DNA of 64,000 bases from the IMG/VR virus record IMGVR_UViG_3300037400_004179, positions 3,427 through 67,426 of that record; one strand, given 5' to 3'. The position numbers were made by a program, and so were the translations under genes. This stretch comes from a virus (Duplodnaviria; Caudoviricetes). A model generated the notes under the pieces. It was not told where the DNA came from, made no database searches, and worked only from the letters and a program-made list of their open reading frames with translations. Within the stretch, counting starts at the first letter, position 1. Each line of letters opens with the position of its first letter. Shown piece by piece: positions 1,729 to 51,962 of the stretch.

Positions 1729-1774
1729 AATGGCAATCCTTTCTTCTCTCTTCCCCGAGCGGCCGGACGGCGAG

Positions 1775-2566: not shown

Positions 2567-2659
2567 TAAGCCCGATTTGCCTTTTTCGGGAGTTTATTGC
2601 CACCTTGCGGAGAGGCAGACTATCCCGGTTCCGCAGATGAATTTTTCCTTTCCGCTCCC

Positions 2660-2986
2660 CTACTTCACGCCGCCTCCTTCGGATTCCGGATCGTTCCCTT
2701 CGTCCGTCGGCTGAACGGCGTCGGGCTCCAGAGCGCGGAGCGCTGCATGTTTCAGTTTGCGGTAAGCTGTCATTACGCCGACGAGGTACGCGACCTTGCG
2801 GTCGGTCTCGTCGAACTGTTCCACGACCGCCGCGGCCTGCCCGATCACGACGTCGAGGGCCTCGTCGAGCATATCGACGAGCTTCTGGGTGTTTTCGCGG
2901 CTGCCCGTGAACGAGCGGATGCGTCGGGCGGTCTCCTTCTCCTCGACCTGCTCGATCCTCACGACCTGTGTCTTCTTCTCGCTCAT
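2660..2986 (-). CDS. hypothetical head-module protein
   Basis: 108 aa; start overlaps portal stop; GC3-biased codons. Confidence 0.6.
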   Translation of the reverse strand: MSEKKTQVVRIEQVEEKETARRIRSFTGSRENTQKLVDMLDEALDVVIGQAAAVVEQFDETDRKVAYLVGVMTAYRKLKHAALRALEPDAVQPTDEGNDPESEGGGVK

Positions 2987-15774: not shown

Positions 15775-15804
15775 TTGCATTGTGTCCACACAATTTGGTA
15801 CAAT
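15775..15804 (+). promoter_or_regulatory. rightward promoter with palindromic operator in spacer
   Basis: TTGCAT (15775-80) and TGG-TACAAT (15796-804); perfect ATTGTGT-CC-ACACAAT at 15779-15794. Confidence 0.65.
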
Positions 15805-34737: not shown

Positions 34738-35079
34738 GGTTGTCTCTCCATGTGTAGTTTTTCTCTATGTGATTCAGATGTGACACCAAGATTCCATTGC
34801 AGAATCCTACTATCACAAAAACAACGCAGAGCATTGTACCATAAGCCCAAACCCGCGTCAACCCGCCTCTACCTATTCAATGGTATTATACCAAACTGGC
34901 AGTATAGGCGCAATAGTGACAGGAAATCGCGCAGGGGTTGGGAATTTGGCGAGATATAAACACGTAATGACGCGTTGAATCATGTAGAGAAATGTTAGAA
35001 TCAAATATAAATTGTTAGAATCGGGGCGTGTTTTTTGTGACTTCCTTGCGACGCGCGGGCACTTTGAGCACCCTGCGCG

Positions 35080-38000
35080 TCATCGGTTGTCGCGTATCAT
35101 CTTGACGACTTTCTCCTTCTCGGCGTTGAGTTCCAAGAGCGCTTTTTCGATCTCCTTCTGAACTTCCGCGACGTTGATGTTCGGGTTCGGATTCGTGCGC
35201 GCAAGCTCCAGCTTCTTGATGCTGCGGTTGATTTCCCTTTCCTCGGAATCGACCTGGCGAACGTGCCCGATGATTGTAGCGGCGACCTCCGGCTTCATCA
35301 GCGGATTGGATGTGCGGATGTTCTCGATGAGCTCCTCTTTCTCCGATTCGTCGAGCATCGGGTCGCGTGCGATCTTCTCGATACTTGAATAATCCTCGCG
35401 GAACTTGTTCGACAGTATCTTGTAGTCGTCCTTGCGGTAGGTGCCCTTGCCGAACCCTGTCATTACGAGCGACGCCCCGATGATGCCTGTCAGCCATTCG
35501 CCGTCCCTGCCGTTCTCCCATATCGACTTGCCCGCATCGCGCAACGAGATCGGGGCAAGCGACAGCATCACTTCGAGCGGGCCGTAGTCCTGTCCCGCGT
35601 AATCCTTTCCGGCAAGCGCCGCAAAAGCGTTGCTGATGAGCGGCGTGACGCGTCCGCGCAAGAAGTGCGCAACCTCCCCGAAGTAGTCGCGGATCGGCGT
35701 CGTGCGTCCATTTCCGCCCTCCTTGACGCCGGACAGGAGCTTGTTTCCAAGACGGCCGAAAGCCACTTCGCCGCCCGTGAAGTCAAGCTGCGTGTGCCCG
35801 ATGCGCGGTGCCATGAGCATAATCGCCTTCTGCGCGAGCGAAGCCCTCTTGAATTTGTCCTTGTCGTCGTCTCGCCCGAAGAGCGCGAGGAGAAGCCCCC
35901 CAAGCAGCATTGCGCCGATGTGCGACTTCAAAAACTCCTTCGTGCCGAGCCACGACATGCGGGCGCGTTCTTTCATCGTGCCGGATCCGTCCTCTTCGGC
36001 AGAAGCCATCCACGGATGCCAGATCGTGTAGCCGAGATGCCGCTTGAACTGCGAATCGACGAGTCCAGGCGCCCACAAAACCTTCCCGAGAACGCTGCGC
36101 GCGTTCTTCGAGAGCGTTCCCGAGCCATTCATGACGTTTATCATGTCGCAGACCATCTTCTTCTCGAAGGTAGACGCTCCGGACGGGAACAGCCCGGGAT
36201 CCTTTACAATCGTCGAGTAGAGGTTTGCCGAAACGGTGTTGATGTAGGTCGCATACAGGCGGTCGCTGTTCGCTATCGCCGTGCCATACACCGGGATGTC
36301 GGTCAGCCGTACCGTGCGCCCGCCTATCGTGAAGCCCCTGTCGATCGCGTCGAAGAACTCCACGCGGTCGCCGCGGTTCTCCGCGAAGTCGCCCGCCTTC
36401 TTCCAGTGCAGCCACTTGTTGTCTACGGCCTCCTTCACCACGGGCTCGGTCATTAGGTCGCTCTCGATGTTCTCCGCGTTGGCCTCGCTGGTGAACGCCG
36501 AAATGGACTGCGTGAAGCTCCGTGCCGTTATCGCCGGATGCGCGACGGCAAGCGAGCCAGTCTGGTTGCCCACTTGCGTGAGGTCGAGCGATGCGGTCGC
36601 CATTTTCCATACGCCGTCGATGAATCGGTAGGCGTCGCCGATCTTGCGCATGTAGACGGGCCGTAGCATTTCCCTCGCCTCGGCGCGGAGCTGACGCATC
36701 TTGCGGTGCGCCCGCCGCAGCTCTTCGCCCATCGCGTCGTACCGGCTCTGCATGTCCTCCGGCATCGGCGGAGTCTTGCGGACGGTCGGCCTTATGTCGC
36801 CGTTCAGGATCTTCTCCTGTATGCGGAGAATCGCCCGTTCGCGCGCTTTCATGCGCATGGCGTTCCGCTTCTCGATCTCCTCGGGCGTCCCTTCGGGGAA
36901 CGCGGCCTTCTTCAGCGCGCGGTACGTCTCGTTCGTCCACCGTATCTGTTCGCGCAGATGCTCGATCTCGTCAGACGTGACGGGGTTGGCGACGCGGTTG
37001 TTCGAGAAGTCGCCCGTCCTTGCGCGCCCAAGCCGCTCCAGGGCGTTTTCAAGAACCTTCTGGAGCGCCTTTTCTGCGCGCGCCCTGCGCTGTTCGTCGG
37101 TGAGGGTCGATTTCTCCCCGAAGAGGTCGTCGTAGGTCTTGCGCAGCTCGTCGCGCCTCGCTTTCAGGTTGTGGAGTTCGACATCTTCCACCACGGTGCG
37201 CCGCGCCCGCTCGATCTTCTCCCCGCGCAGTATTGCCCGTTCGAGATCGGCTATCTGGTTCTTGATGCGCGTCTTGGCGGAGTCGAGCGCGCCCTTGAGC
37301 GCACGCGGACCGCCCTCCTGCTGGTCGATGTCCTTCTTCATCTCCTGGACCTCGCGGCGGAGCGCCCGCGTTTCGTCGGAGGGCTCGTCTCGCACCATGC
37401 CCGTCTGCGGCGGAAGTCGTCCGTTCTCCAGCATGTAGTCGCGCTGCCGCTTTGCGAGAGACTGCGCCTTGAGGTCGTTCATCTTGCGCTGGGAGTCATA
37501 GCGACTCTGGCGGTAGTTCTGCCCGAATCCCGTCAGCACGTCGCGCACGGTCTCTTCGTCGATGCCGTCGTCGAGGAACTGCCCGACGTCCCGCCGTATG
37601 GCGTCTATCACGCCCTGCTCGTCAATGTCGGGGTTCATGAAGCAATGGTACTCTCCGATCGCCCTGAGCCATTTGCCCCACGACGGATACAGCTGGTCGG
37701 CGAGGCCGATGAGCGTGCCGCCGGCTTCGTCCGCGTGGACTTCGATCTGGTTCAGCGCGTCGTTGTAGTTGCGCGTGACGCGCTTAAGCTCGTTCCCCGC
37801 GCCGCGCGGCGTCATCGAGCGCGTCTTGTCCCCGCGCTTTATGTCGTCCACGATCTTCTGCGAAAAGAGCTTCAGGCGCTCCACGGCCATCTGCCGCTGC
37901 TGCTCGTCGAGATTCTTGAAGTTCTCGGCGAGACGTCCGATCTCCGCGTCCATCTTCCCGGGAATCTCCATCCCGCCGAGCTCGGTCTGCACCATGCCGC

Positions 38001-41000
38001 GAAGTCCCGCGTAGGAATAGTCCGCCGCATCCACGGCGATGCGGTTGGAGCGGAGCGCCCTGCCCTGTTCGGACGCGCCCTGCATCTTCGCGACAGACGC
38101 CTCGCGGAACTCGCGCTGCGCCTTCGCGAGCTCAAGTTTCATCTCCTTGGCGCGCTTCTTCAGCTCTTCGACCGTCTCGGCGTCCGTGTCGGACGGAAGC
38201 TCCTCGACCATCCTCTCCATGTCGTCGCTTGCGGACTTCGCGTCGTTGAGCACGCTCGCGCACTGGTCGGCGTAGATGCCGAGCGCGACGTTTTCGTAGT
38301 CGCGGGTGGCGCGGCCCTTCTGGTAGACGGCATGGGCGAGCTTGCGCATGTACTCGCGGTTGGAAAGCAGTGCGTCGGCCTGCTTCATCAGAACTTCGTC
38401 CGTCTTCACCGCGTGCTTCGGCGGTTCCATGCCCGCCGCCGTCATTGCGCCTGCGATCTCGGCGTTGGTGAAGCCGTAGAGCTTCACGTCCTCCTCGGAA
38501 GTCGGAACGACGCCGATGCGGTCGGGGTCGAGGTCCTTTGTGTCGAACTCGACCTCGCCCATCTCCTTCTCGAGGTCGGCTATCTGGCGTTCGACTGGAA
38601 CGGGCTGGTTTATCTTCGCAAGCGCGATCGCCGCCGCCTGCGCCTCGCGGTCGGAGTTGATGCGCTCGTCGAGTATCTTTGCCGCGGCCTTCTTAGCGCC
38701 CTCGTCCTTGATGCCGAGTATGCCGTTCACTTCGGCGAGACGCACGATCATGTCGTCGATCTTGCCGGGCAGCGATTCGTCCACGCTCATCTTGGCAAGC
38801 GACTCGGCGGATGCCTCGAAGCGGCGCTTGGCGGCTTCGACGCTCTGGTCAAGCTCTGCCAGCACGCCCTCGCCCGTGGCTCGGGTAACTGCCGATTTCA
38901 GCAGCGCGACCGTGCCCTTCGTTATCACCGCGACGCGGTTCACTATCGGGATATTCGGCACTCCGGGCGCGCTCGAAGTGACGTCCCTTCTCAGCGCGGG
39001 TATCTCGATCGCGCCGCTTGGCTCGATACCAGACGAGCCGCGGTGTTCGTGCCACCACACGGGGAATCCGTACAGTCTGCCGATGATGCCGTCCTCGGCG
39101 CCCTTGCGCACGAACTGGTTGCACTTGTCGGCGAGGAACCGCGCGATCTCGTCATTGTCGGTGAGCGTCTTTCCGGCGAAGCTGCCCTCCGTGTCCACCA
39201 CCTCGATGCCGAACGGACTGTCGCCTTTCGCGGCGTTGAAGTCGGAAATCTTCTTCTTCGTCTCCTCGGCGATCCGCATTGTCCGCTCAAGCCGCTCCTG
39301 GTCGCTCTCCATGCCAAGCTGCGCGTTGCGAAGGTCGGAGCGCTGGTTCGACAGCGTGAGGTCGGCTTTGCGCAAACTCTCGGTCAGCTTGACGCGCTCC
39401 AGCATGTACTTTCCGAGAGGCCCTGCCGCCGCCGCCTTTGCCTCCTCCGCGGAGAGAACGGCGTCGTCCACGTCCTCCACTTCGTCAACGGACATGTCAT
39501 GATTCATCGCCTGGTTGATGAACTGCTGCTTGGTGGAAACCTTGTCGTAGGAATATACGTCGAACGTGCCCTCCGTGACATAGCGATGGATGCCGATCTC
39601 CGCGTTGAGGTTTCCTGCGCGGATGCCGCGCCCGTCGCGCTGGATGAGCCAGGCGGGTTTCCACGGCACGTCAAGGTGGTGTATCGCGACGAGACGCTTC
39701 TGCACGTTCGCGCCTTCGCCCATCTTCGGCGTGTTGCCGATGAGGATTCGCTTGCCGCCGCGGAAGTTCGTGTTGACGCCGTTGAAGTCGGCGAAGAGAG
39801 CACGCTTCATGTCGGCATTCTCCGCGTCGTGGATGAAGGCTATGTCGCTCTCGGGGATTCCGCGCCTGATGAGAAGCTGCTTTAGATGTGCGTAGATGTT
39901 GAACTTGCCGCGCAGCATGTTCTCGACCCCCACATCGCCGTTCAGCTTCTCGTCGGGATCGCCGTTTTCCTCGCCGTCCTCTTCGTCCTCCTCGGCTATT
40001 CCCTCGTCAACATCCTCGTCGAGTTCCTCCGGCGCGGAAGCGCGTTCCTGCGCAAAGGGGTTCTCGAAACGGATGTCGTAGCCGAGCGTGGCGGCGTTCT
40101 GGTCTATCCACGCGTTTATGTCGAACGGGCTTCCGGCCGGTTCAGCCGCATGCTTCTTGTCGGCCATCTTGTGCGAGACGTTGTACTCCGCCGCCGTCAG
40201 CGCCATCTCCTCGAACGCCGCGTAGACGGTCGAAATGTCCTCCACTCCGCCCTGCTGGTGGTCGAGGAACGGCTTGGGGCTGAACTTCGCGCCGTCGCTC
40301 CTCACGGCCCGCGCATGGCGGAATCCGTTCGCGTCCACCGGAGAGACGTAGAACTGCCAGTAGTTACCGCTCTTCGTGGCGAAGCCTCCGTCGGAAGTCT
40401 GCACGACGCGCGAGAACTTGCGCGGCTTCGGCACGCCCGAATCGCAGAACACGAGCTGCGTTCCGTCGAGAACGGTCTTGCCGTCCTTCGCCGCCTTTCC
40501 CGTGGACTTCTGCCAGATGCGGTAGATTTCGTCCGCGGCGGATTCGAGACGCCTGTGCTCGCTCTTGAGACCGAGAAGGGACGGGTCGATCGCGACGAGA
40601 CGACCCTCCGTAACGACTTTCAGCGGATTGTCGATCTTGGGGTCGTAGCCGCCCTTGAACGAATCAAGGCGCTTGTCCAGCTCTTCGACCTTGGCGACCT
40701 GCGTAGGGTCTGCGGGTATCTTGTGGACGATGGGCTTTCCGCCGATCATGAACGGACGCGGGATGTTGAGGTCTTCGTCGAGAACTACGTCCGCAAACGA
40801 ATGGAAGAACTTCTTCATCTCCACGAGGTTCTGGAACTTCGCGAAGCGCGTCTTCTCCTGATAGCCCTTGCCGGACGCCCTCGGCATCGGCTTCGTCTCC
40901 ACCACGCCGAACGCACGCGCCCAGTCGTCGAACCGCCGCACGCCCATTTCCGCCATCTTCGTCGGCGAAAGGAAGCGCATGGTCGTGTACATCTCGCTGA

Positions 41001-44000
41001 TGGAGTTGGAGATTATCGTGCCGGACGCGAATATCACGCCCTTGTCGCCGCCGTGAAGCTTCGACAGATAGCGGCACTTCATCTCCATGTCCTGCGCCCT
41101 CTGCGAGACGGAGCCGGTGACGCCCGACACGTTCTGCATTCGCGTCGTGATGTCGAGCCCCTTGAAGTTGTGGGCCTCGTCAACGAGAAGGTAGTCGACG
41201 CCGATGTTCTCGAAAGGCACGGTCGAATCCTTCTTGGACGCGTCGAGGAGCTTCTGCATCTTCGCCGTCTTGTTGGCGATCTTCTTCTCGATGCGCTTCA
41301 CGGCGTTGCCCTTCTTGCCGCTTTCGCGCGCCTCCGCCTCCATCATTTCCCGCAGATCGTCGATCTCCCTCTGGATGTACTCGGCCTGCACCTTCGGGTC
41401 CATGCCGATGAGCGAGAACGAGGAGTGCGGAACGACGATGCAGTCCCAGTCGCCGTTCGCGGCCTTGGCGAGGAACTTGCGTCTGTTCGCCGTGGCGAGG
41501 TCGCGTGACGTCGCCACAAGGACTCTCGCGCCGGGATAGGCCTCGAGAAACTCCTTCAGGACCTGCCCGGACTCCACCATGTGGTTCGGCACGGTCAGCA
41601 TCGGCTTCTGCGCAAGCCCAAGGCGGCGGAGCTGCATGCAGATGGAAAACATCTCGAAGCTCTTGCCGGCGCCCACGCAGTGCGCGATGCAGAGGTTGCC
41701 GCCGAGGACACCGCGCGCGATCGTCCGCTTCTGATGTTCGTAGCCAGGCGTGTTGGCGCGGCCTTTCCATACGTCGCTGATGCCGTCGAGCGTGATGAGG
41801 TCTGGGTCCCACCTGCGAGGAACGTCGTCGTTCATCATGTCGTTGTACGACCGCTTCACGCGCTCCGCGCGCTCGGGCGTCGCGACAAGCCATTTCGACA
41901 TTGCGGCGGTGAGGTCGTCGCGGAGCGATTCGGCCTGCTGTGTCTTCTGCGGGTTAAGCACGTAGTGGTACTTTCCGCCTCCGTCGTCCACTCTGTCCTT
42001 GATCGTAAGCGGGGAGCCGTTGAAGATTCGCTTAAGAAGCTCCTCGAGACTAATTGGTGAGCGGCGCGCATATTCGGGATTTACCGCTTCGCCCGTCACG
42101 CGCCAGGTGTCGGCCTTCTCGTCGTAGCCGACCGTGACGTGGTTCGGGTTGCAGCCGAACACGACTTCGGCGAGGAAGTCGCGGTACATGTCGTTCGGTA
42201 TGAACCTCTGGCCCATCTGGTACCGTATCTTCGTAGCGGGCTTGTCCTCCGGCTGAACCTTCTCCAGTTCCTCGACGTTCTTGTTGAACGCGGGATCTAC
42301 GTCTGCGGCCGCCCGCGCCTCGCGGAGCTTGCGGCGGACAGATCCGGAAAGATACTCGTCGCGCGTCTCGAACGAACCCGTGGACGGATTCTGGAAGACG
42401 TGTCCGCTCTGTACGAGCTGTTTCTGCACCTCGTCGGCGGGAAGTCCAGTCAGTTCTGCGATGCGCGGGATGTTCACGCGCCCGCACTCGTTGAGCGAGA
42501 TGCGAAGGCCGTCCATCGGCGTGTCGGCCTTGGTAGCCCTTGTCGCCCCGAAAAGCGTCCTTTTCTTCAGCGCGTCGGACTTGCGGAAGTTGGCCTTCTT
42601 CATCTTCGGCTTGCCGTTTGCGCCAACGCCGTCCGGCACGAGATCATAGGCTTCCAGCTGTTGCAGGACGATTCCGTCCGCATCGTCGAGGTCGAACAGC
42701 TCGCGCATGACCTTTTCGTTGTTGAAGGACTTGTACCGTGCAATCATCGCGTCATACGCCGTGTTGAGCGACAAGCGCTTCATCTTCACGGAATCTTCGG
42801 TTCCGTTCTTCTGCGCGTCGATATACGCGTTGTACGCATCCCGTAGGGCGATAAACTGCTTGACCGCGCCCAAGAACGAGAATCCCTTGTCGCTGAACTT
42901 CTTGGGCCACTTGATCTTGGACGTATCGACGGGAACGAGCATGTCCCCCTCGCGCTTCACGACCTTGTCGTCCACGATGCCGATGTTGCCGCGCCTGAGA
43001 CCCGACTTGTCGGCGTCGAGCGAAATCGGGTCCGGCTTCGACACTTCGTTGGCCGGTATGTATTTCAGCCCCTCCGCAGCCTTCTTGACGAGGGCGGGCA
43101 GTTCCGCAAGGTCCTTTGTGGCGACAAACTCCAGCGCGGGCGTGTTGCCGTACATGCTCGTGCCCCGCTTCACCGTGGCGAATATCATCTCGGGATGCTC
43201 CGCGAAGTATCCATTGATCTTCAGACCCTCGATCTCGCCGTTCCGCGCGAACGCGGAATTGTCAACTTCGCCCTTTTCCTTCTGAATGAAGATGATGTCG
43301 GACGCGACGGCTGTTCCGGCGTTCTTCTGCTGGTATTCGTTCGGGAGCCTTACGGCGCCGACGATCTTCCCGCCATGCTGCTCCAGGTAGCGGATGAGCG
43401 ACTTGTCGAGCTTGTCGAGCGTTCCCGTTGAGGTGATGAACGCCGCGACGCCGCCGACGCGAAGACGGTCAACGCCTCGCGCGATGAAATAGTCGTGTAT
43501 CGGGAAGTTCAACTTGTTGTACTCGGGGTCATGCAGGTGAATCTGCCCGAAGGGGACGTTCGACACGACCGCATCCATGAATCCGGGCGGTATCGGCGTC
43601 TCCTCGAAGCCCTGCACCTTCACGTTGGAAAGCGGATATAGGTAGCCGAGAATCTTGCCCGTCGTCTTGTCGAGCTCCACGGCCGTCCACTGCGCGTCCT
43701 GATAACGCCCCGTGCCGATGAAGTTGCCTACGCCGGCGGAGGTTTCGAGCATTCGCCCGCCGTTGAAGCCGGACGCCTTGAGCGCGGCATGTATGTCGCG
43801 GCAGACGTCTATCGTCGTGTAGAATGCGTCGATGGTCGCACGGTGCAGGGCCTTGAACTCCTCCGGCGTGAGAAGCTCGCGGAGCTGCACGTAGTTGTCG
43901 AACCCCTTCAAGCCGAAGCGAAGCTTACGCAGGGCTGCCTGCGTCTGCGCGGGAAGCTCCTTTGACGGAATGCCGCCGTACTTTTCGTATGCGTCCTTGT

Positions 44001-47000
44001 ACTTCTGGTCGAGAGCCTGTGGAAAGCCGCCGAAACCGACGTACCGCGCAAGCTTGGTCTTCTCCTCCGGAGTCGGCAGACGCCCCTCCCCTTCAAGGTC
44101 GTTGAGAAGTTTGATTACCTCGATGTTGTTCGCGACCTTCTCGCGGGGCGTCGAGTTCGTGAGCCATTCGGCGTCTTCGTCGGTAATGACGTAGTTGGAC
44201 GGTTTCTCGGGACTCGCCTTATGCGCGGCCTCAACCGGATCGGAAGCTGCTACTCCGTGTAAGGCGTCGGATTGTCCGGGTTCCAGTCGTCGCCCAGATT
44301 CGCCGCTTTCAGTGCTTCGTCCACTATGTTCCCTTGTGTCCGAAGGTGGTAGTTCAGCTTTTTGACCGTCTCCCTGTCCGCGCTCTTCGTGTAGTTCGGA
44401 AACAGGCTGTCGTACTTCGTCTCCGACCACAGAAACGCCCGCTGCGCGTCGTTCTCCGTCGTCGTGTACAGGCTGATCTGAGCTCCTTTCGCCCTGTTGA
44501 GTAGCCACGTTCCCGCGTCCCTCTTCTCCAGATGCTGAAGCAGGAGCTGCGGGTCGCAGTTCCGATATGCCGTCAGCGCTTGGCGCATCAGGCTTCCCAG
44601 ACTGTCGTACATCGACATTTTCGTTTCCTTCCTCGGCGGATACCGATATTGTACCATAAATTTCGTCGGCGCGTTCGTCGGAAACGCGCTCCAGTCCCTT
44701 TTGCTTGGCGACGGCGTTCCAGATGTCCTGTAGGACCGGCTTCGCCCGCTCGAACTTCGCGGGGTCGCTTTCGTAGATGTACGCGGCGAGAGACTTGAAG
44801 TCCTTGTGTCCGCTCTCCGAAAGAACGTCAACGAGCTTGCCGACGCCCGTGACGAGCCGACCGAACTTCTCGTAGTCGAAGCTCTTGTCGTCGAAGTCCA
44901 CCCCGGCTTCAAGGGGCCCTGAAATGGCAGCGTGAAGCGCGGTGTATCCGCCGTCCGCCGTGCGAGCGAGCTTCAATTCCTCCTCGTCAACTACAATATG
45001 CGGATTCTGTTTCTCCCACAATCTGTCGCCGAAGCGCGTATCGGTAGATTTCGTGAAGCCGTGGTCTTTCAGGAACTTCTCGCGGTTCTCGAAAAGAGGT
45101 TCCGCGCGCGCAACGACCTTTGGACCGTTGGCGACCGCGTAGAGATTTCCCTTTTCGTCCTCGGCGTAGCCAGTGACTTCGTAGCCGCCGAACGCGGCGT
45201 TGATGCGAAGAATGTCCAGAAAGGCATTGGCTGCTTTCCCTGGCGTTCCGTCGAAGATCGGGATTACGACGGTTCCGTCGGAGAAGTAGCGCCATCCGCG
45301 CTCGCTTGCCCGCTCGGATTTTCCTGCGACGACCGAGGCGAGAGGCCGTGTTCCCTTTCGTATGCCGCTTCCGCCTCGAACGTCCACCCCCTGTTGATTA
45401 GCTTGCTCAAGAGCTGCATTCGCCTCGAACTTTGTTCGTCCGTGCGTGATCCCCGCGGCAACTGCCCGATGAAAAGCAGTTCCTGATACTCTTGCGGCGT
45501 CAGGATATCCTTGGCTGGCTTTGACGTAGCTTCCATAACCTCTTTCCCTCAGTGACGCTATTATAGCATTTTTCGCGCCGCCCTGCTCGTAGGCGACGCC
45601 GCCGGGGTGGTACTTGTTGGCGTACCCCTGCGCCTGTCTGCGCGTGTAGCCGTGGGCCTGGACGATCTTGCCGTCCGGCATGAGGATGTCGAATGTGCGG
45701 CGCTCGTGCCTGTCGGGGTCGAGCTGCTTTGTGTCGAAGTCGAGCGCGTCGAGAATGTCCTTCGCCTTCTTCTCGGCGTCGGCGTCTTTCAGCTTCACCG
45801 TGCGCTTCTTCGGCTTCTGCTCAACCTGTCGGGATTCCTGGCTGCGGGTTTTTTCAGGCTTTTTGGCGTCCTCCTGCGGGCGCGTGACCTTGTATGTGCC
45901 AAAACTATTGTCTTCATACTCCTGGCGTCCATCCCATCTTTTTCCTGTGAAAGGGTCGGGGTATCCAAGCGCCCTGTCAACAGCGTCACGTGAACCGATT
46001 TTTTCATAGATTTTGGCAATGTTAATCTTTTCGCCAGGCCTTACCATGCCTCTTATCTGACGCCACGTATCGACAATGGCTTTTATCTTCGCCGCCCTGT
46101 TGCCTCCCTGGAATATCGTATTGGCAAATATCCTTTCCACCATTGCCGGATCGGGCTCGTCGGCAGTTGTTTGCGTTTGCACGGCGGAAGCAGTTGCGGG
46201 CTTTTCAGTTGTTCGGCTTTCCAGAACAGGTGGTGTTTGCTTTTCGGGCTTCGGAGCAAGTTCCGAAGTGCTGTTGTCGGCAGAAGGCGTTTCCGCTTTC
46301 GGCTTCGGTGTTTCCAAAACAGGCTTCTTTGTTTCAGGCGACGCCGCTTTCGTTTCAGAAACCTTTGCTTTTGTTTCGGCGGGCGCTTTCTTTGTTTCCG
46401 GTGTGGCGGGGGCGGGCTTGCCCGCGCGCTTCGCCTTGATTGCCTCCACCTTCGCTTTCGCTTCGGCGCGCTTCTTCGCCGCGGCGTCGGCCTTGGCGTT
46501 GATCTCCGCGTCCATCGTCTTCACGTCGGCGTCTTCGAGGATGCGCGTCCCGGCGGGATCCCAGTAGTCTGCGCGCTCCGTTGCGAGATCGTAAGCCTTT
46601 TCAAGCTGCGCCTTGTCGGTCTTGTCGGTCACGCCGAGCTCCTTCGCATATTCGGCGTTCAATTCCAGCTTGCCCTGGCGATTGAGGGCCGAGCGTATGT
46701 TTGAAGCCACTTCCGCGTAGATGTTCGACTTGCGCTGGCGGTATTCGTTGCGCCTCTTGGTGAGTGCTTCCATAGCAAGGAAACTCTCGTCCTGGAAGAG
46801 GTCCATCTGCTCGCCCTGCAAGAGATTCTTGTTGACCGCACCGCTCTGGAGCTGGCGCGTCATTTCGCGGGCATAGCCCGTAAACGCCTTGCCTTTCATG
46901 CCACTCTTCGCGGCGCGGAGCAGCACGGACTGGATGAACGCATTGCGCTCGTGCGCCCCCTTTGGGGCGGCCTGAGCGATTGTCGTTGCCTGATTGGGCG

Positions 47001-50000
47001 TTATGAGCCCTTCTTCGCCCGTTCCTCCCAGATCCGTTGCGCGGCGGACAGCTTCGGTAGCATCTGAATAAATGCTCCATGCAACGAGCCCTTTTCCCGA
47101 GAGGATTCCGGCCTTTTCTGCCTGTTCTCGGGTTGGCTTGGCGTGTTCGAGGAATCCGATGTAGTCATTTATTGTCCCTTTCTCGTCATGGATGTTCGCC
47201 ACGGCGTCAAATATCTCGGCATGATCCTTCGTGAAGCCGTCGGCTTCGCGGAAGACGTAGTATAGCATGGACTTATTCAGCCTGTCGGCCATCTCGCTGC
47301 GGTGCCGTCCGGTGATTACGGCGAGCTTGCCGTCCTTCGTAAGCCACACCGCACCAATGCCGCCCATCGTCGGATGCCAGTCGCCTGAAAGCGGCTTTGT
47401 GATGCCGCTTGTCCGGTTGGCGTCCTTCTTCATGTTCGGCAGAATCGCGTCGGAACGGTCAACCTTTTTCGGGTTCAGCCGAACGACAGGCGCTTCCTGC
47501 CCGAGAATCGACAGGAAATCAGACGATTCGGGCACTTTTTCTACGGCTTCAACGCCTGTCATGTCCATAGCATCGGCAAGCGTCTTGCGCTCCTCTTCGG
47601 TCAGCGGCGCCTTGGCCGCTTGCGCAACATCGTCCACAGACGCGATTTTCCGCTCTCTGGGCGCGTTTTCGGGTTCAGGCGTGACCTTCTTCGTCTCGGA
47701 GCCGCCCTGCGCTTCTGCGGGCTTGGCGGGGGTTTCCGCGACGATAGGCGCGGGGTTTTTTGTCTCGGTTGCCGTTTCGGGCGCCTGTTCCTGTGTCGGG
47801 GCGGGCGCTTCTGGCTCTTCGACGGCGGTATGGTCGGCGTTTGCGTTAGCCGGGATGAACTCCACGCCGCCGTTCGCGGTCGCGCTCTCCTTCTCGATAC
47901 GGCTGGCGATGACCTCAAGATCGGCGTCGTTCAGCTTGCCGACCTTGCCGAAAAGCGCATGGGAAATCCGCTGGCCTATCGAAGGATTGTGCCCGCGCTT
48001 CTGGAGCCACTGCGAAAACGCCTCTTCGCGGAGCTTGTCTTCGGGCAGCCTGCGCTCCTCGCCGCGAGCCTCGTTCATCTCGCGCATCTGGCCGAGAAGC
48101 CTCCCGTACTCCGTGTCGGGCGACACGCGCGAAAGCATCTCCTGCCTTGCCGCCGGATCGCCCTTGCCAGCCGCATGTCCCGATTCGTGGGCAAGGACGC
48201 GGTTCATGTCCGCCGCGCTCTCGATGTTGTCGAGAACCATGACGACCGTTCCGTCCGGGCATGTAAAGCCGCCGGCGTCGGAACCGCCGATCAACGTGGG
48301 CGGATACGTCACCGAGCCGTCCTTGCCCGTGACGAACAGCTGGGACACGTCCCTGATGCCGTGGAAATCGCCGTTCTTGGCAATCTCGCCCTGCACGACG
48401 CGGAATACGTCGCCCACATGGTCGGCAATCTCCGTCGGACGCTGAAACTTCGTCTGCGTCAGCTGTTCGGCGTAGCGCCGCTTCACGGCGTTGTCGAGGG
48501 ACTGCTTCTGGTTCGTGAGGGCGTAGAAGTCGGCGCACCTCTGGGCCTCGCCAAAGTCGTCTATGGCGAATACGCGCTCGGGGTGTATCTCGTCGCGAAC
48601 TTCGTATGTGCCGTCCCCGTTCTCGATCATCGTTACGCCGGACTTCTCGTCGTACATTTCGTTGACGACTTCCGTCTTCCCCGTCACGCCGTCGGTGCGA
48701 ATCGACTTGCTGAACTTCGGGACAGGCTTTCCGTCGGCCCCGGTCTCGGTCTGCACCTCGAAACGGCGCGGCGATTCGCCGTATTCCGCCACGTCCTTCT
48801 GGAGCTTGTAGGTGGACTGCTTCGTCAGCTCGTCGGCCATCTTGCCGAGATAGCCGCCCGCCTTTTCAAGCGCGCCCCTGAGCGCATCGGGGTTGTCGTG
48901 CATCGCGTTCCACGCGTTCGCGAACGCAGCACGCTGGCCGAGCGACATTGCGCCGACCTGCTCCTTCGTAAGTCCGCAGACGCTTTCAAGCTGGTTGCCG
49001 ATGTCGCGTTTCGCGTCGATGTGCTGTATTGCGGTCTTCCCTCCGGCTACCGCCGTCTGCGCGCCCATCTGGAGAAGCATGGCCAGCATCGTGTTCCACT
49101 GTCCGCCAACCGTATACTGCCCGCCCTCGTCGGTAAAGGCGTGCCTCAACTCCTCCATGACGCCGCGGTACTCGGAGTCTTTCTTCCCCCAGCCGAGAAC
49201 GTCGCTGAAAAAATACTGAACGTTCTCTTCGGGAAGCTCCTCAAAAAGCATGTCGCCGAAGCCCGTTACGTCCGTCAGCCTGTTGTAGTTCTGGTAGACG
49301 CGGTTTGCCGCGCGCCCGATCTTGCCACCGTGCTTGCCGAGCAGGGAGAAGGTCTTTCCTGCGAGAGGACGCGTGATCTCGCCGACCGTGTTTTCCAGAA
49401 GGTTCTCGGCGAAGCTGTTGCGAAAAGCCTTTCCGAGCGTATCGCCCTTGTCGCCCTCGGACGCCACAACGACGTTTCCGTTCTGATCAAGCGCGTATTC
49501 GTCACGCGCCATTTCGCGCATTCCCTGTGCCGTGCCGGACATCGTGGCCGGCATAGCCTTCGCCGCATCGACGCCGACCTTCTGCGCGGCGACCTTCGCA
49601 AATTCCTTTGCCCCTTCCGATGTGAAGAGCTTTTTTAGACCCTCCTTTGTCAGCAAGTTGAAGCCGAGCTTTGCGGTCTGTGCGCCCTTCATGAGCATGC
49701 CGCCAGCCGCCATCTCGCCGACGTAGCGGACGGACGGCATGCCGCCCACGACGATCTTGTCGGTGAAGCCCCTGTCGGTTTCGTCGAGCTTTTTCCGCGC
49801 CTCCTCCTGTGCGCCAACAGATTCCTTGAACTTCGCGTCGACAAGCTCTTTCAGGCGCTTCTCGAAGTCTGCACGAGGCTCCTTGTCGCCTCTTTGGGTC
49901 TGTGTGATGTTTGCGCCGAGCAGGTAGGCCGCCTCGTCCGCCATCATGTCGTCGAGCGTGTCGCGACGATCCCCCATCATCATGCCGAACATGCCGCGAC

Positions 50001-50457
50001 CGAGCGCCGCCTGCTCCGGCGTCTGCTCGCGTCCGTTCACGACGCGCTTCTGTAGATGCGGCTTGCCGTCGATGAAGTCCCTCATCCGCGTCAGGCGGTC
50101 TTTCTGCGTCTGCTCGAAGTCTCCGCCGGCGAACGGGACGAGATTCGCGAAGGCATAGCGGCCCGCCCCGTCGCGCTGGCCCGTCTGCGCCTGCCACTCA
50201 AGTTCCATCAGCTCGCCCTTGCTTCGCTTCACCTTGTCGCTCTTCTCCGGCGCCTTCGGAGAGTAGACCGAAGATGTGCCGAGAGAGCCGCGCAGTTCGT
50301 CTTCGCTAATGCCAAGCTGCGCGGCAAGCTTGGATTCCGTCTTCTGACCTTCCCCGTCGTCGATGAATTTCGGGCCGGATGCCTGCGCATCGTCGATGAA
50401 CTTCGGCGCAGACGGCATTTCGTCGTCGATGAATTCAGGCGTCTTGAAATCGCTCAC
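35080..50457 (-). CDS. giant (~5125 aa) DarB-like polyvalent virion protein: HExxH peptidase, ParB-like, kinase-like, N6-adenine MTase, SNF2 helicase and helical C-terminus
   Basis: Likely GTG start at 50457 overlaps upstream stop (GTGA); VLAHESGH (~48180); ITGRHR (~47310); LETSAGVGNF, VELD, SNVPFG (43250-43750); HCVGAGKS, VDEAHNFK, QRDGRGIRAGN (39600-41700). Confidence 0.88.
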   Translation of the reverse strand: MSDFKTPEFIDDEMPSAPKFIDDAQASGPKFIDDGEGQKTESKLAAQLGISEDELRGSLGTSSVYSPKAPEKSDKVKRSKGELMELEWQAQTGQRDGAGRYAFANLVPFAGGDFEQTQKDRLTRMRDFIDGKPHLQKRVVNGREQTPEQAALGRGMFGMMMGDRRDTLDDMMADEAAYLLGANITQTQRGDKEPRADFEKRLKELVDAKFKESVGAQEEARKKLDETDRGFTDKIVVGGMPSVRYVGEMAAGGMLMKGAQTAKLGFNLLTKEGLKKLFTSEGAKEFAKVAAQKVGVDAAKAMPATMSGTAQGMREMARDEYALDQNGNVVVASEGDKGDTLGKAFRNSFAENLLENTVGEITRPLAGKTFSLLGKHGGKIGRAANRVYQNYNRLTDVTGFGDMLFEELPEENVQYFFSDVLGWGKKDSEYRGVMEELRHAFTDEGGQYTVGGQWNTMLAMLLQMGAQTAVAGGKTAIQHIDAKRDIGNQLESVCGLTKEQVGAMSLGQRAAFANAWNAMHDNPDALRGALEKAGGYLGKMADELTKQSTYKLQKDVAEYGESPRRFEVQTETGADGKPVPKFSKSIRTDGVTGKTEVVNEMYDEKSGVTMIENGDGTYEVRDEIHPERVFAIDDFGEAQRCADFYALTNQKQSLDNAVKRRYAEQLTQTKFQRPTEIADHVGDVFRVVQGEIAKNGDFHGIRDVSQLFVTGKDGSVTYPPTLIGGSDAGGFTCPDGTVVMVLDNIESAADMNRVLAHESGHAAGKGDPAARQEMLSRVSPDTEYGRLLGQMREMNEARGEERRLPEDKLREEAFSQWLQKRGHNPSIGQRISHALFGKVGKLNDADLEVIASRIEKESATANGGVEFIPANANADHTAVEEPEAPAPTQEQAPETATETKNPAPIVAETPAKPAEAQGGSETKKVTPEPENAPRERKIASVDDVAQAAKAPLTEEERKTLADAMDMTGVEAVEKVPESSDFLSILGQEAPVVRLNPKKVDRSDAILPNMKKDANRTSGITKPLSGDWHPTMGGIGAVWLTKDGKLAVITGRHRSEMADRLNKSMLYYVFREADGFTKDHAEIFDAVANIHDEKGTINDYIGFLEHAKPTREQAEKAGILSGKGLVAWSIYSDATEAVRRATDLGGTGEEGLITPNQATTIAQAAPKGAHERNAFIQSVLLRAAKSGMKGKAFTGYAREMTRQLQSGAVNKNLLQGEQMDLFQDESFLAMEALTKRRNEYRQRKSNIYAEVASNIRSALNRQGKLELNAEYAKELGVTDKTDKAQLEKAYDLATERADYWDPAGTRILEDADVKTMDAEINAKADAAAKKRAEAKAKVEAIKAKRAGKPAPATPETKKAPAETKAKVSETKAASPETKKPVLETPKPKAETPSADNSTSELAPKPEKQTPPVLESRTTEKPATASAVQTQTTADEPDPAMVERIFANTIFQGGNRAAKIKAIVDTWRQIRGMVRPGEKINIAKIYEKIGSRDAVDRALGYPDPFTGKRWDGRQEYEDNSFGTYKVTRPQEDAKKPEKTRSQESRQVEQKPKKRTVKLKDADAEKKAKDILDALDFDTKQLDPDRHERRTFDILMPDGKIVQAHGYTRRQAQGYANKYHPGGVAYEQGGAKNAIIASLRERGYGSYVKASQGYPDAARVSGTAFHRAVAAGITHGRTKFEANAALEQANQQGVDVRGGSGIRKGTRPLASVVAGKSERASERGWRYFSDGTVVIPIFDGTPGKAANAFLDILRINAAFGGYEVTGYAEDEKGNLYAVANGPKVVARAEPLFENREKFLKDHGFTKSTDTRFGDRLWEKQNPHIVVDEEELKLARTADGGYTALHAAISGPLEAGVDFDDKSFDYEKFGRLVTGVGKLVDVLSESGHKDFKSLAAYIYESDPAKFERAKPVLQDIWNAVAKQKGLERVSDERADEIYGTISVSAEEGNENVDVRQSGKPDAPSADGISELRPAAPASASGEEGRGNVATQQGERSSDQPVHDDGERRAAGVSVVGDEVRQPVSELHEERGQGDGQKAELPPSDTREHSGRSTESGESGRRLEPGQSDALHGVAASDPVEAAHKASPEKPSNYVITDEDAEWLTNSTPREKVANNIEVIKLLNDLEGEGRLPTPEEKTKLARYVGFGGFPQALDQKYKDAYEKYGGIPSKELPAQTQAALRKLRFGLKGFDNYVQLRELLTPEEFKALHRATIDAFYTTIDVCRDIHAALKASGFNGGRMLETSAGVGNFIGTGRYQDAQWTAVELDKTTGKILGYLYPLSNVKVQGFEETPIPPGFMDAVVSNVPFGQIHLHDPEYNKLNFPIHDYFIARGVDRLRVGGVAAFITSTGTLDKLDKSLIRYLEQHGGKIVGAVRLPNEYQQKNAGTAVASDIIFIQKEKGEVDNSAFARNGEIEGLKINGYFAEHPEMIFATVKRGTSMYGNTPALEFVATKDLAELPALVKKAAEGLKYIPANEVSKPDPISLDADKSGLRRGNIGIVDDKVVKREGDMLVPVDTSKIKWPKKFSDKGFSFLGAVKQFIALRDAYNAYIDAQKNGTEDSVKMKRLSLNTAYDAMIARYKSFNNEKVMRELFDLDDADGIVLQQLEAYDLVPDGVGANGKPKMKKANFRKSDALKKRTLFGATRATKADTPMDGLRISLNECGRVNIPRIAELTGLPADEVQKQLVQSGHVFQNPSTGSFETRDEYLSGSVRRKLREARAAADVDPAFNKNVEELEKVQPEDKPATKIRYQMGQRFIPNDMYRDFLAEVVFGCNPNHVTVGYDEKADTWRVTGEAVNPEYARRSPISLEELLKRIFNGSPLTIKDRVDDGGGKYHYVLNPQKTQQAESLRDDLTAAMSKWLVATPERAERVKRSYNDMMNDDVPRRWDPDLITLDGISDVWKGRANTPGYEHQKRTIARGVLGGNLCIAHCVGAGKSFEMFSICMQLRRLGLAQKPMLTVPNHMVESGQVLKEFLEAYPGARVLVATSRDLATANRRKFLAKAANGDWDCIVVPHSSFSLIGMDPKVQAEYIQREIDDLREMMEAEARESGKKGNAVKRIEKKIANKTAKMQKLLDASKKDSTVPFENIGVDYLLVDEAHNFKGLDITTRMQNVSGVTGSVSQRAQDMEMKCRYLSKLHGGDKGVIFASGTIISNSISEMYTTMRFLSPTKMAEMGVRRFDDWARAFGVVETKPMPRASGKGYQEKTRFAKFQNLVEMKKFFHSFADVVLDEDLNIPRPFMIGGKPIVHKIPADPTQVAKVEELDKRLDSFKGGYDPKIDNPLKVVTEGRLVAIDPSLLGLKSEHRRLESAADEIYRIWQKSTGKAAKDGKTVLDGTQLVFCDSGVPKPRKFSRVVQTSDGGFATKSGNYWQFYVSPVDANGFRHARAVRSDGAKFSPKPFLDHQQGGVEDISTVYAAFEEMALTAAEYNVSHKMADKKHAAEPAGSPFDINAWIDQNAATLGYDIRFENPFAQERASAPEELDEDVDEGIAEEDEEDGEENGDPDEKLNGDVGVENMLRGKFNIYAHLKQLLIRRGIPESDIAFIHDAENADMKRALFADFNGVNTNFRGGKRILIGNTPKMGEGANVQKRLVAIHHLDVPWKPAWLIQRDGRGIRAGNLNAEIGIHRYVTEGTFDVYSYDKVSTKQQFINQAMNHDMSVDEVEDVDDAVLSAEEAKAAAAGPLGKYMLERVKLTESLRKADLTLSNQRSDLRNAQLGMESDQERLERTMRIAEETKKKISDFNAAKGDSPFGIEVVDTEGSFAGKTLTDNDEIARFLADKCNQFVRKGAEDGIIGRLYGFPVWWHEHRGSSGIEPSGAIEIPALRRDVTSSAPGVPNIPIVNRVAVITKGTVALLKSAVTRATGEGVLAELDQSVEAAKRRFEASAESLAKMSVDESLPGKIDDMIVRLAEVNGILGIKDEGAKKAAAKILDERINSDREAQAAAIALAKINQPVPVERQIADLEKEMGEVEFDTKDLDPDRIGVVPTSEEDVKLYGFTNAEIAGAMTAAGMEPPKHAVKTDEVLMKQADALLSNREYMRKLAHAVYQKGRATRDYENVALGIYADQCASVLNDAKSASDDMERMVEELPSDTDAETVEELKKRAKEMKLELAKAQREFREASVAKMQGASEQGRALRSNRIAVDAADYSYAGLRGMVQTELGGMEIPGKMDAEIGRLAENFKNLDEQQRQMAVERLKLFSQKIVDDIKRGDKTRSMTPRGAGNELKRVTRNYNDALNQIEVHADEAGGTLIGLADQLYPSWGKWLRAIGEYHCFMNPDIDEQGVIDAIRRDVGQFLDDGIDEETVRDVLTGFGQNYRQSRYDSQRKMNDLKAQSLAKRQRDYMLENGRLPPQTGMVRDEPSDETRALRREVQEMKKDIDQQEGGPRALKGALDSAKTRIKNQIADLERAILRGEKIERARRTVVEDVELHNLKARRDELRKTYDDLFGEKSTLTDEQRRARAEKALQKVLENALERLGRARTGDFSNNRVANPVTSDEIEHLREQIRWTNETYRALKKAAFPEGTPEEIEKRNAMRMKARERAILRIQEKILNGDIRPTVRKTPPMPEDMQSRYDAMGEELRRAHRKMRQLRAEAREMLRPVYMRKIGDAYRFIDGVWKMATASLDLTQVGNQTGSLAVAHPAITARSFTQSISAFTSEANAENIESDLMTEPVVKEAVDNKWLHWKKAGDFAENRGDRVEFFDAIDRGFTIGGRTVRLTDIPVYGTAIANSDRLYATYINTVSANLYSTIVKDPGLFPSGASTFEKKMVCDMINVMNGSGTLSKNARSVLGKVLWAPGLVDSQFKRHLGYTIWHPWMASAEEDGSGTMKERARMSWLGTKEFLKSHIGAMLLGGLLLALFGRDDDKDKFKRASLAQKAIMLMAPRIGHTQLDFTGGEVAFGRLGNKLLSGVKEGGNGRTTPIRDYFGEVAHFLRGRVTPLISNAFAALAGKDYAGQDYGPLEVMLSLAPISLRDAGKSIWENGRDGEWLTGIIGASLVMTGFGKGTYRKDDYKILSNKFREDYSSIEKIARDPMLDESEKEELIENIRTSNPLMKPEVAATIIGHVRQVDSEEREINRSIKKLELARTNPNPNINVAEVQKEIEKALLELNAEKEKVVKMIRDNR
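44250..44618 (-). CDS. nested +1-frame gene inside giant gene (122 aa; weak TnpV-like resemblance)
   Basis: TGGTACAAT at 44656-44648, AAGGAAACGAAA-ATG; GC3 bias lies in this frame while giant frame has A/T third positions. Confidence 0.6.
   Translation of the reverse strand: MSMYDSLGSLMRQALTAYRNCDPQLLLQHLEKRDAGTWLLNRAKGAQISLYTTTENDAQRAFLWSETKYDSLFPNYTKSADRETVKKLNYHLRTQGNIVDEALKAANLGDDWNPDNPTPYTE
45264..45536 (-). CDS. nested +1-frame gene inside giant gene (90 aa)
   Basis: TGCTATAAT at 45568-45560, GAGGGAAAGAGG before ATG; GC3 bias shifted to this frame. Confidence 0.5.
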   Translation of the reverse strand: MEATSKPAKDILTPQEYQELLFIGQLPRGSRTDEQSSRRMQLLSKLINRGWTFEAEAAYEREHGLSPRSSQENPSGQASADGATSPTEPS

Positions 50458-51962
50458 TTCGTGGCCTCCTTGGTTGAATGGAAGTTCCCGTCGCTCCACA
50501 TGTAGTATGTTTTGCCCTTGCGTGTCACACTTCCGCCGACGGGCACATTCATGCCATCGGTGTATTCCACGCCATCCTTCCATCCACCATTATCGCCTGA
50601 CTTTATCTCGCCTTTATCCGCCGTCGGCTTCGACTGTCCGCCGGCGTACTTCTTCTTGAGAGACTCGATGCTGTCGAGGTATTCCTGCTGGAACTGCGCT
50701 TTCTTTTCGGCGGGAAGTCCCGAAAAGACCTGCGCGGCCTCGTTGTGCCCGTCCTGCGCGAGCTTGTAGGCGAAGATGTCCTCGTTCAGCTGCTGGGACC
50801 GCTCGCCCTTGTCGATCCGCGCCTGAAGCTCCTGTCGGCGGAGTTCGAGCTTGTCCTGCTCAAGCTTCAGCTCCGCCTCGCTCTTGCCGCCGCCCTTCGG
50901 CGCAACCTGCGCGACTTCGAGATTGCCCTTGTTCTTCAGCTCCTGCACCTCCTTCGCGCTCTCGGCGCGCACCTGTGCCGCCTGTACGCTCGCGGGCGTG
51001 TTCGCCCCGACCTGCCACTTGAAGGGATTAAGGCCGCCGAACTCCGACACGGTGGACGCGCGGGCGTCCGCCTCGCTGACGTTGTTGAGCGTTGCAAACG
51101 AGGTCGAGAACTGGTTCATCACGCGCCCGAGGTCGAGCGGGACAAGCGACTTGGACGCCTTGGAGCCGTCGCTCTTGTTCACGGCCATGTAGAATGCGGG
51201 ATCGGCAATCGGCTTCCCGTCGTCGTCAACCTGCACGTAGGCGGCGATTTTCGACAGCGAGGACTTGCGCCCCATCGCCTCGGACTGCGCGTTGGCGCGC
51301 TCGATGGACGAACCGCCCACGGACACGACGCGGTACTTCTTGCCGTTGTGCTCCTTGACTTCGCCAAGCCCCTCGTTCATCAGAAGCCGAAGCGCGTTCT
51401 TCGCGGCCTGCGCGGTCGTGAAGTTTCGCTCGGCCCTCTGCATTTCGCGCTCCTTCTGGCTTTTCAGCATGAAGTCATACGCCTGCTGTCCGCGCGTCTT
51501 CGCATCGGCGAGACGCGCCGCCTTCTGCTGCTCGATCGCGTCCGCCCACGACGTGGCCGTGCCCTGGTTCGGGGAGATGCCGGAAGAAGCCGCCTCCATC
51601 ATCCTGAGAGACTGCGGGGCTTCCACCGCGTTGCCTTTCAAGTCCTCCCATGTCGTCGCTCCTGTCTTCTGATCAACGACGCGCACATAGCCGCCGAACG
51701 CCGTGCGGCCTTTGCCGTCCTTGCCGACAACCGTCTGGGGCTGTGGCTGCTGCGTGGGTGTGGCCGTCGGCGCCGGCTTTGCCTTCATCGCGTCGAGCCG
51801 TGCCTGCGGTATGCTCGCGGCAGCGTGCATCTCGTCGGTGATGCCGGGGGCGCGGCCAATCTCCGCAACGGATTTCCTGTACACCTCGTCGGGCGCCATA
51901 TTCTGAATGTCGTTGATCTCCTTGAGCTTCTGATCGAACTCTGCATCTGTAAGGTTAGCCAT
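50454..51962 (-). CDS. putative internal virion / DNA-ejection protein
   Basis: 502 aa, Ala/Gln/Lys-rich coiled coil, directly upstream of giant gene. Confidence 0.55.
   Translation of the reverse strand: MANLTDAEFDQKLKEINDIQNMAPDEVYRKSVAEIGRAPGITDEMHAAASIPQARLDAMKAKPAPTATPTQQPQPQTVVGKDGKGRTAFGGYVRVVDQKTGATTWEDLKGNAVEAPQSLRMMEAASSGISPNQGTATSWADAIEQQKAARLADAKTRGQQAYDFMLKSQKEREMQRAERNFTTAQAAKNALRLLMNEGLGEVKEHNGKKYRVVSVGGSSIERANAQSEAMGRKSSLSKIAAYVQVDDDGKPIADPAFYMAVNKSDGSKASKSLVPLDLGRVMNQFSTSFATLNNVSEADARASTVSEFGGLNPFKWQVGANTPASVQAAQVRAESAKEVQELKNKGNLEVAQVAPKGGGKSEAELKLEQDKLELRRQELQARIDKGERSQQLNEDIFAYKLAQDGHNEAAQVFSGLPAEKKAQFQQEYLDSIESLKKKYAGGQSKPTADKGEIKSGDNGGWKDGVEYTDGMNVPVGGSVTRKGKTYYMWSDGNFHSTKEATK

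Follow-up and report, generated by a model that had tools for sequence, protein, structure and literature searches.

Can a phage gene of 15.5 kb hold a second, separately expressed gene within its own coding sequence? This question is raised by a stretch of 64,000 nucleotides (nt; hereafter the window) comprising positions 3,427 to 67,426 of the 67.4-kb IMG/VR virus record IMGVR_UViG_3300037400_004179, which CheckV rates as complete; the stretch is present, as a whole or in part, in bovine and sheep gut metagenomes from 17 studies. The initial annotation, made from the letters alone, had proposed that an open reading frame (ORF) in the +1 frame of a giant gene, here called ORF1, is a gene of its own; it had suggested a frame-specific comparison of substitution rates and had named +1-frame stops in close homologues as an observation that would speak against the gene. 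Our analysis supports the proposal through frame-specific selection, preserved ORF ends and coding-type codons. ORF1 is very probably a genuine, separately translated gene for a compact six-helix protein (P0002), nested in the +1 frame of the polyvalent gene of a temperate rumen phage, in a disordered linker before a DarB-like module. The features that carry the argument are:

35080..50583, minus strand: host gene, polyvalent and DarB-like, a single ORF of 5,167 codons.
44250..44618, minus strand: nested gene ORF1, with its ATG at 44618-44616 and its TAG at 44252-44250; 122 codons, product P0002.
44250..44660, minus strand: linker of the giant frame, of low complexity in translation and rich in G, S, R, E, D, A and P.
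38644..44232, minus strand: DarB-like methyltransferase and SF2/SNF2 helicase module (phrog_10089).

The composition of the stretch follows the nested frame. ORF1 is shifted by +1 relative to the giant gene ((50583-44618) mod 3 = 1), and its content of guanine plus cytosine (GC) at the three codon positions (0.55/0.41/0.80) resembles that of the giant gene overall (0.62/0.41/0.78), whereas the giant frame across ORF1 gives 0.80/0.55/0.41. The codon log-likelihood of the nested frame (+0.24) lies within the coding range (0.135 to 0.80), and that of the giant frame at ORF1 (-0.63 bits per codon) falls within the off-frame range (-0.77 +/- 0.14). Read in the +1 frame, the translation looks like off-frame junk 5' of the ATG and like a globular protein 3' of it. 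Both descriptions in the initial annotation, namely a globular-looking protein of 122 amino acids (aa) with genome-typical GC at third codon positions (GC3) and a low-complexity linker with atypical third positions, thus agree with codon scores, codon-position GC and translation.

The strongest evidence comes from the pattern of substitutions. The window was aligned with three DNA relatives, L001 (IMG/VR), L002 (a contig binned in a Verrucomicrobia metagenome-assembled genome) and L003 (ENA). Inside ORF1, pairwise ratios of non-synonymous to synonymous substitution rates (dN/dS) were 0.07-0.44 for the nested frame versus 1.4-4.3 for the giant frame. On either side of ORF1, values were 0.04-0.38 for the giant frame and mostly above 1 (0.95-2.9) for the +1 frame, so that the suggested comparison places the constraint on the nested frame within ORF1 and on the giant frame around it. 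Along the 15.5-kb alignment, the variable codon position is position 3 of the giant frame, with one clear exception at 44658-44283, where it is position 3 of the nested frame; this switch within ORF1 is highly significant (chi-square 88.5, P = 6e-20). Between the window and L003, 24 changes in ORF1 are silent in the nested frame but alter the giant protein, and 2 do the opposite, while the same two classes count 9 and 80 downstream of ORF1. An independent metagenome contig (X2, 97% identical) repeats the pattern: 17 of its 20 listed differences fall on nested position 3, and they shift to giant position 3 just past the ORF1 stop codon. As read from these substitutions, purifying selection in the ORF1 stretch clearly acts on the nested frame only.

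In addition, the arrangement is preserved over a considerable distance. The most remote locus with DNA, 10.7 kb long, comes from a genome (G083, 68% GC) of the same phylum as the genome of L002. In the window, L001, L002, L003 and G083, both frames are open across the whole overlap, and the start and stop codons of the ORF are preserved. None of the five loci thus has a +1-frame stop. In L001, L002 and G083, the giant gene likewise crosses the site as one uninterrupted frame. The G083 homologue of P0002 (145 codons, 34% identical, E = 5e-17) again lies in the +1 frame of the giant ORF and between the same flanking domains as in the window, which are 43-45% identical; the giant-frame linkers of the window and G083 show no similarity. 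Protein searches returned homologues with a common start (M-x-M-Y-D-S-L-G) and end (T-P-Y-T-E), with 56-98% identity among those of 122-132 aa and down to 37% among those of 123-138 aa, and ORF1 is also kept in at least 10 metagenome protein clusters (122-138 aa). No credible long or fused forms of P0002 were obtained, the long or repeat-rich matches P0013 and P0015-P0018 being inflated by repeats. A tblastn search of the nested protein against GenBank phages and PLSDB plasmids gave no match, and scans of viral contigs with P0009, P0011 and P0008 added no new locus. In all five loci of known DNA context, the family occurs only in the nested position.

Another reading is that ORF1 is no gene at all: the frame would be open by chance in DNA of high GC, or would be an artefact of assembly or frameshift. 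Long spurious ORFs are indeed common in a window of 58-62% GC. However, frame-specific purifying selection, coding-type codon usage and a confident fold (see below) contradict this reading, as do ORF ends conserved across independent assemblies from different studies, and we regard it as hardly credible. The expectation that standard gene callers miss ORF1 is supported for long contigs. Gene callers forbid nested genes on the same strand, and therefore annotated phage genomes do not show the P0002 family; those members of its clusters that we looked up are mostly on short contigs.

What, then, does the giant frame encode across ORF1? The linker continues through the nested gene without stops and shows no conservation at the protein level. 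When the nested protein was recoded with synonymous codons, the giant frame stayed without stops in only 1.5-3.5% of cases, yet it is open in every locus. Because no stop interrupts it, synthesis of the giant protein as a single chain is still possible. An opening beyond chance, together with strongly constrained flanks in the same frame, argues for true dual coding with the giant frame as a spacer that is merely kept open. In the alignments, the giant frame over ORF1 evidently serves as a passive spacer, drifting freely in sequence but nevertheless kept without stops. Two metagenome homologues, P0006 and P0007, carry a 9-residue insertion after helix 3; the corresponding 27 nt keep both frames in register, which indicates that the length of the linker follows the nested protein. 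Re-initiation to give a separate DarB-like protein was considered and rejected, as a conserved in-frame start codon (ATG, GTG or TTG) is absent from the surroundings of the ORF1 TAG. ORF1 provides a clear example of dual coding, in which one frame holds all the protein constraint and the other is kept open as the spacer of a giant injected protein. Mutations or truncations made in such giant genes may also strike hidden genes.

The features relevant to the expression of ORF1 are:

44648..44656, minus strand: extended -10 box TGGTACAAT, with 29 nt between the box and the ORF1 ATG.
44624..44634, minus strand: Shine-Dalgarno-like sequence GAGGAAGGAAA, 5 nt 5' of the ORF1 ATG.
33511-34893, minus strand: integrase gene (phrog_1), directly downstream of the giant gene.

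Both the ribosome-binding site and the extended -10 box about 30 nt upstream, of the same type as one at 15796, had been noted initially; the former is GAGGAAGGAAA at 44634..44624, kept in the relatives, and the latter is present at the spacing given above. The transcription start is predicted near 44641. The motif TGNTAYAAT, which fits a sigma-70 extended -10 promoter, occurs eight times in the window versus 0.6 expected. Of the remaining copies, some precede the integrase gene or small ORFs and others fall in a divergent early region; in three of the small ORFs, the ATG starts 32-38 nt after the start of the motif. At ORF1, the box is kept as TGnTAYAAT in L001, L002 and L003 despite two changes that alter the giant protein, and the Shine-Dalgarno sequence GAGGAAGG is invariant in these three and the window. 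In G083, AAGGAAAGGAAG precedes the nested ATG, and the sole TATAAT of the 10.7-kb locus (0.08 expected) occupies the homologous place, with 25 nt from the hexamer to the ATG. Altogether, a promoter of its own is a well-supported prediction for ORF1.

The same motif marks two other regions. Upstream of the integrase gene lie two tandem extended -10 boxes (TGGTATAAT at 34893 and TGGTACAAT at 34841) with a leader of ~100 nt, and the integrase adjoining the giant gene indicates a temperate phage. Between 14339 and 15804, three further TGGTAYAAT boxes, two of them divergent (15723 on the minus and 15796 on the plus strand), stand 5' of ORFs of 64-89 aa; by its layout, this region looks like an early or lysogeny switch region.

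On the basis of these conserved signals, host RNA polymerase would start at the internal extended -10 promoter (44656..44648), a type that also sits before the integrase gene and small genes of the early region, and ribosomes would then start at GAGGAAGG and the ATG. With a promoter and ribosome start of its own, the small protein could be made while the giant gene, probably a late virion gene, is silent. An alternative route would be a programmed +1 ribosomal frameshift that joins ORF1 to the first ~1,990 residues of the giant protein, so that a shortened isoform would terminate at the TAG. Upstream of the ATG, the +1 frame has no stop over 118 codons in the window, L001 and L003; in G083, this holds over 45 codons. 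In L002, however, a +1-frame TAA stands 10 codons before the ATG without a slippery site between them, which argues against a fusion product. Moreover, the upstream +1 translation is junk-like with dN/dS > 1, and ATG, Shine-Dalgarno sequence and -10 box are all conserved. We consider the frameshift very improbable.

Turning to the product, AlphaFold2 with an alignment of 14 sequences gave a six-helix model of P0002 at high confidence (predicted local distance difference test, pLDDT, 92.9; predicted template modelling score, pTM, 0.86). Foldseek found no match for it in the PDB and BFVD at E <= 0.001, a sequence profile search of the PDB gave nothing, and the ESM Atlas held no usable match. Nothing significant was found in PHROGs, NCBIfam or PADLOC either, the best PHROG being phrog_4957 (E = 0.074). 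The predicted fold of P0002, without a match among solved structures, is possibly novel and may inform the debate on new proteins born by overprinting.

One family had been brought forward at the outset, P0002 being said to resemble TnpV (PF14198) weakly. Distant relatives do carry nested TnpV genes in giant genes:

L007 1632-1970, plus strand: TnpV gene, nested in the +1 frame (Pfam, 119 bits).
L009 1956-2288, plus strand: TnpV gene, nested in the +1 frame (Pfam, 81 bits).
L008 about 1355-1687: nested TnpV gene, grouped with those of L007 and L009.

P0002 could accordingly be a very divergent TnpV-family protein that lacks the N-terminal part, of the same kind as those nested in other DarB-like genes. 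The Pfam-positive genes of L007 and L009 (E = 7.6e-36 and 3.8e-24) are in favour of this, and the only weak match of the P0002-family profile outside its own clade is the TnpV ORF of L007 (E = 1). A profile-profile comparison (hhalign) of the P0002 family with the two nested TnpV genes pairs residues 15-53 with TnpV 33-71 over 39 columns (E = 0.045), but at a probability of 1.2% it is not significant. The search that scores 119 and 81 bits in L007 and L009 (cut-off 27 bits) finds nothing in six frames of the genome up to E = 10, and PF14198 matches neither P0002 nor any of 14 members of its family, likewise up to E = 10. The TnpV genes, each behind a good Shine-Dalgarno sequence, also occupy another part of the giant gene, the methylase module lying about 540-660 codons further downstream. 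The claimed resemblance and membership in the family are therefore not shown by these comparisons; a remote kinship is a less likely possibility. In a literature search, we found no paper naming TnpV together with DarB.

The surroundings of ORF1 give a further lead. As the initial annotation had it, ORF1 lies just before the methyltransferase domain: the match of the host gene to phrog_10089 ('DarB-like antirestriction'; E = 4.7e-226 and 2.3e-117, profile positions 1557-3228) begins 7 residues past the ORF1 stop codon. The module also matches phrog_11801 and phrog_62 and, weakly, Pfam Eco57I, ResIII and Helicase_C and NCBIfam DrmD. Polyvalent proteins are assigned to the DarB class by a methylase-helicase dyad of this kind (PMC5512222), and the host gene fits this definition, with an adenine-methylase domain fused to a C-terminal SF2/SNF2 helicase in a multi-domain phage protein. 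For the N-terminal ~2,100 and C-terminal ~1,050 residues of the giant protein, nothing was found in PHROGs and nothing credible in NCBIfam. In another part of the giant gene, at about 45900-46500 on the minus strand, all three codon positions vary equally among the relatives (0.5-0.68) and GC dips to 0.49-0.51; this may be a segment that is hypervariable or has been exchanged, or else a linker that aligns poorly.

ORF1 is apparently not the only gene within this gene, and the place before the methylase module is occupied in other lineages as well:

45264..45536, minus strand: second nested gene ORF2, +1 frame, 90 codons, product P0028.
45560..45568, minus strand: perfect extended -10 box TGCTATAAT, 23 nt from the ORF2 ATG, which starts 32 nt after the start of the motif.
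L010 3609-3935, plus strand: +1 ORF of 108 aa, ending right before the methylase module.
L013 3627-3938, plus strand: +1 ORF of 103 aa, ending right before the methylase module.
L011 3663-3905, plus strand: +1 ORF of 80 aa, ending right before the methylase module.

ORF2 looks like a real nested gene, judged from its conservation. Its box TGCTATAAT is identical in all four aligned sequences, wobble positions included; ORF2 also lies behind a ribosome-binding site, AGGGAAAGAGG, and L001-L003 keep its start, stop and promoter in identical or conserved form. For codons 1-60, compared with L002, dN/dS is lower in the nested frame (0.22-0.25) than in the giant frame (1.0-1.2); over the last 30 codons the contrast is inverted. 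In line with a constrained core of about 60 residues, AlphaFold predicts P0028 as helical over residues 1-62 (pLDDT 80-95 by 10-residue blocks) with a disordered tail. For P0028, no homologues in the protein collection and no fold match were found.

The ORFs in L010, L011 and L013 belong to distant DarB-like giant genes without the P0002 family, and the giant-frame GC3 at the slot falls to 0.28-0.40. The proteins of L010 and L013 have an N-terminal motif in common (E = 1e-7), and the L010 ORF has metagenome homologues of 108 aa (P0029 and P0030). An hhalign comparison revealed no relation between the P0002 family and the L010/L013 family (probability 0.25%).

What could P0002 do in this place? 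Its position suggests that it may work in trans with the DarB-like module or act on it, either as a regulator or as an adaptor for assembly or packaging. This is a serious possibility, although we would not put it at even chances. The nested layout would keep P0002 and the module inherited together. One competing explanation is that ORF1, while real and nested, is independent, moron-like cargo (anti-defence, superinfection exclusion or a regulator) that settled in the linker only because the DNA there is free of giant-frame protein constraint. Its promoter is of the type found before the integrase gene and small early-region genes, and a second nested gene sits in another linker. Non-homologous small ORFs fill the same slot (L010/L013 and L011) and TnpV-type nested genes lie elsewhere (L007 and L009), a turnover typical of cargo or arms-race genes. 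On the other side, in five lineages the slot is specific to the junction that precedes the DarB-like module, P0002 is exclusively nested in the five loci of known context, and GenBank phages and plasmids hold no match to it. We consider independent cargo and a partner role about equally likely.

Several points weigh against the picture of ORF1 as a nested partner gene of the module. In the GC-rich G083, a giant frame open by chance is not improbable (32%). Material from RNA libraries consists of short assembled contigs, none of which spans ORF1 and which come without start or strand information; those at the two nested genes (X18 at 44571-44857, at ORF1; X19/X20 at 45350-45545, at ORF2) are too short to tell start, strand or transcription. 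Among known families, folds, defence systems and motifs, no match was found that would point to a function of P0002. A partner role, including the inhibitor, chaperone or antitoxin of the methylase-helicase that had been put forward at first, has its position as the sole argument, and the unrelated small ORFs in the same slot of other lineages fit a permissive cargo space equally well.

More tentatively still, the linker before DarB-like modules might be a conserved gene-within-a-gene slot that, in divergent phages, is filled by fast-evolving small proteins with their own promoters (the P0002 family, the L010/L013 family and the L011 ORF). These would be obligate trans-acting partners of an injected anti-restriction enzyme, such as regulators, inhibitors acting in lysogens or packaging adaptors, with nesting forcing joint inheritance. 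If the small proteins do work with the DarB-like module, they would be missing components of a widespread phage anti-restriction machine.

Overprinted genes are known from other phages, for example Rz1 within Rz, the spanin genes of phage lambda, and B within A and E within D of phiX174. Like ORF1, these are complete phage genes lying wholly inside another gene on the same strand, in the +1 frame and with their own ribosome-binding site. In contrast to ORF1, these are small genes in which the products of both frames are constrained, functionally linked or essential, whereas the host frame of ORF1 is an unconstrained linker of a 15.5-kb gene and the nested gene has its own predicted promoter. 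With respect to the host frame, the 'spacer' of the hepatitis B virus polymerase, a tolerant, disordered segment between enzyme domains that overlaps preS, comes closer: here too, the spacer frame drifts and the overlapping frame carries the selection. However, this is another kind of virus with a different genome size and function, and it offers no nested gene with its own promoter in a double-stranded DNA phage.

A small regulatory gene in a distinct frame of a giant multi-module gene is found in comS inside srfAB of Bacillus subtilis (PMC12915044). With 46 codons, comS has no promoter of its own but uses PsrfA, and it overlaps a structured non-ribosomal peptide synthetase domain (PMC12915044); ORF1 has 122 codons, a predicted folded product, a predicted internal promoter and a linker as host. 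TnpV of Tn4451/Tn4453 (PF14198) is postulated to be Xis-like, its function being unproven (PMC3158075). It is, like P0002, a small helical protein of about 110-120 aa, but the P0002 family differs from it in having no PF14198 match, no N-terminal P-[ND]-L-x-[IL]-E-E-P segment and a different linker.

The functional parallel to the host module is the Dar anti-restriction system of phage P1, which comprises DarB together with the small proteins Ulx, DdrA, DdrB, Hdf and DarA (PMC12810830, PMC5512222). DarB of P1 needs small accessory proteins, including Ulx, DdrA and DdrB, for packaging and function (PMC12810830). The two systems are alike in the DarB-like methylase and SF2 helicase, and the P1 accessories offer a model for a partner role of P0002; the P1 genes are separate rather than nested, and no sequence similarity was found between P0002 and the small Dar proteins of P1. 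Overlapping genes are not mentioned in the paper on polyvalent proteins (PMC5512222), and our literature search found no paper describing this nested arrangement in DarB-like genes. Compared with these systems, ORF1 would represent a known kind, the nested phage gene, in a new form, with its own predicted promoter and the unconstrained linker of a giant gene as its host.

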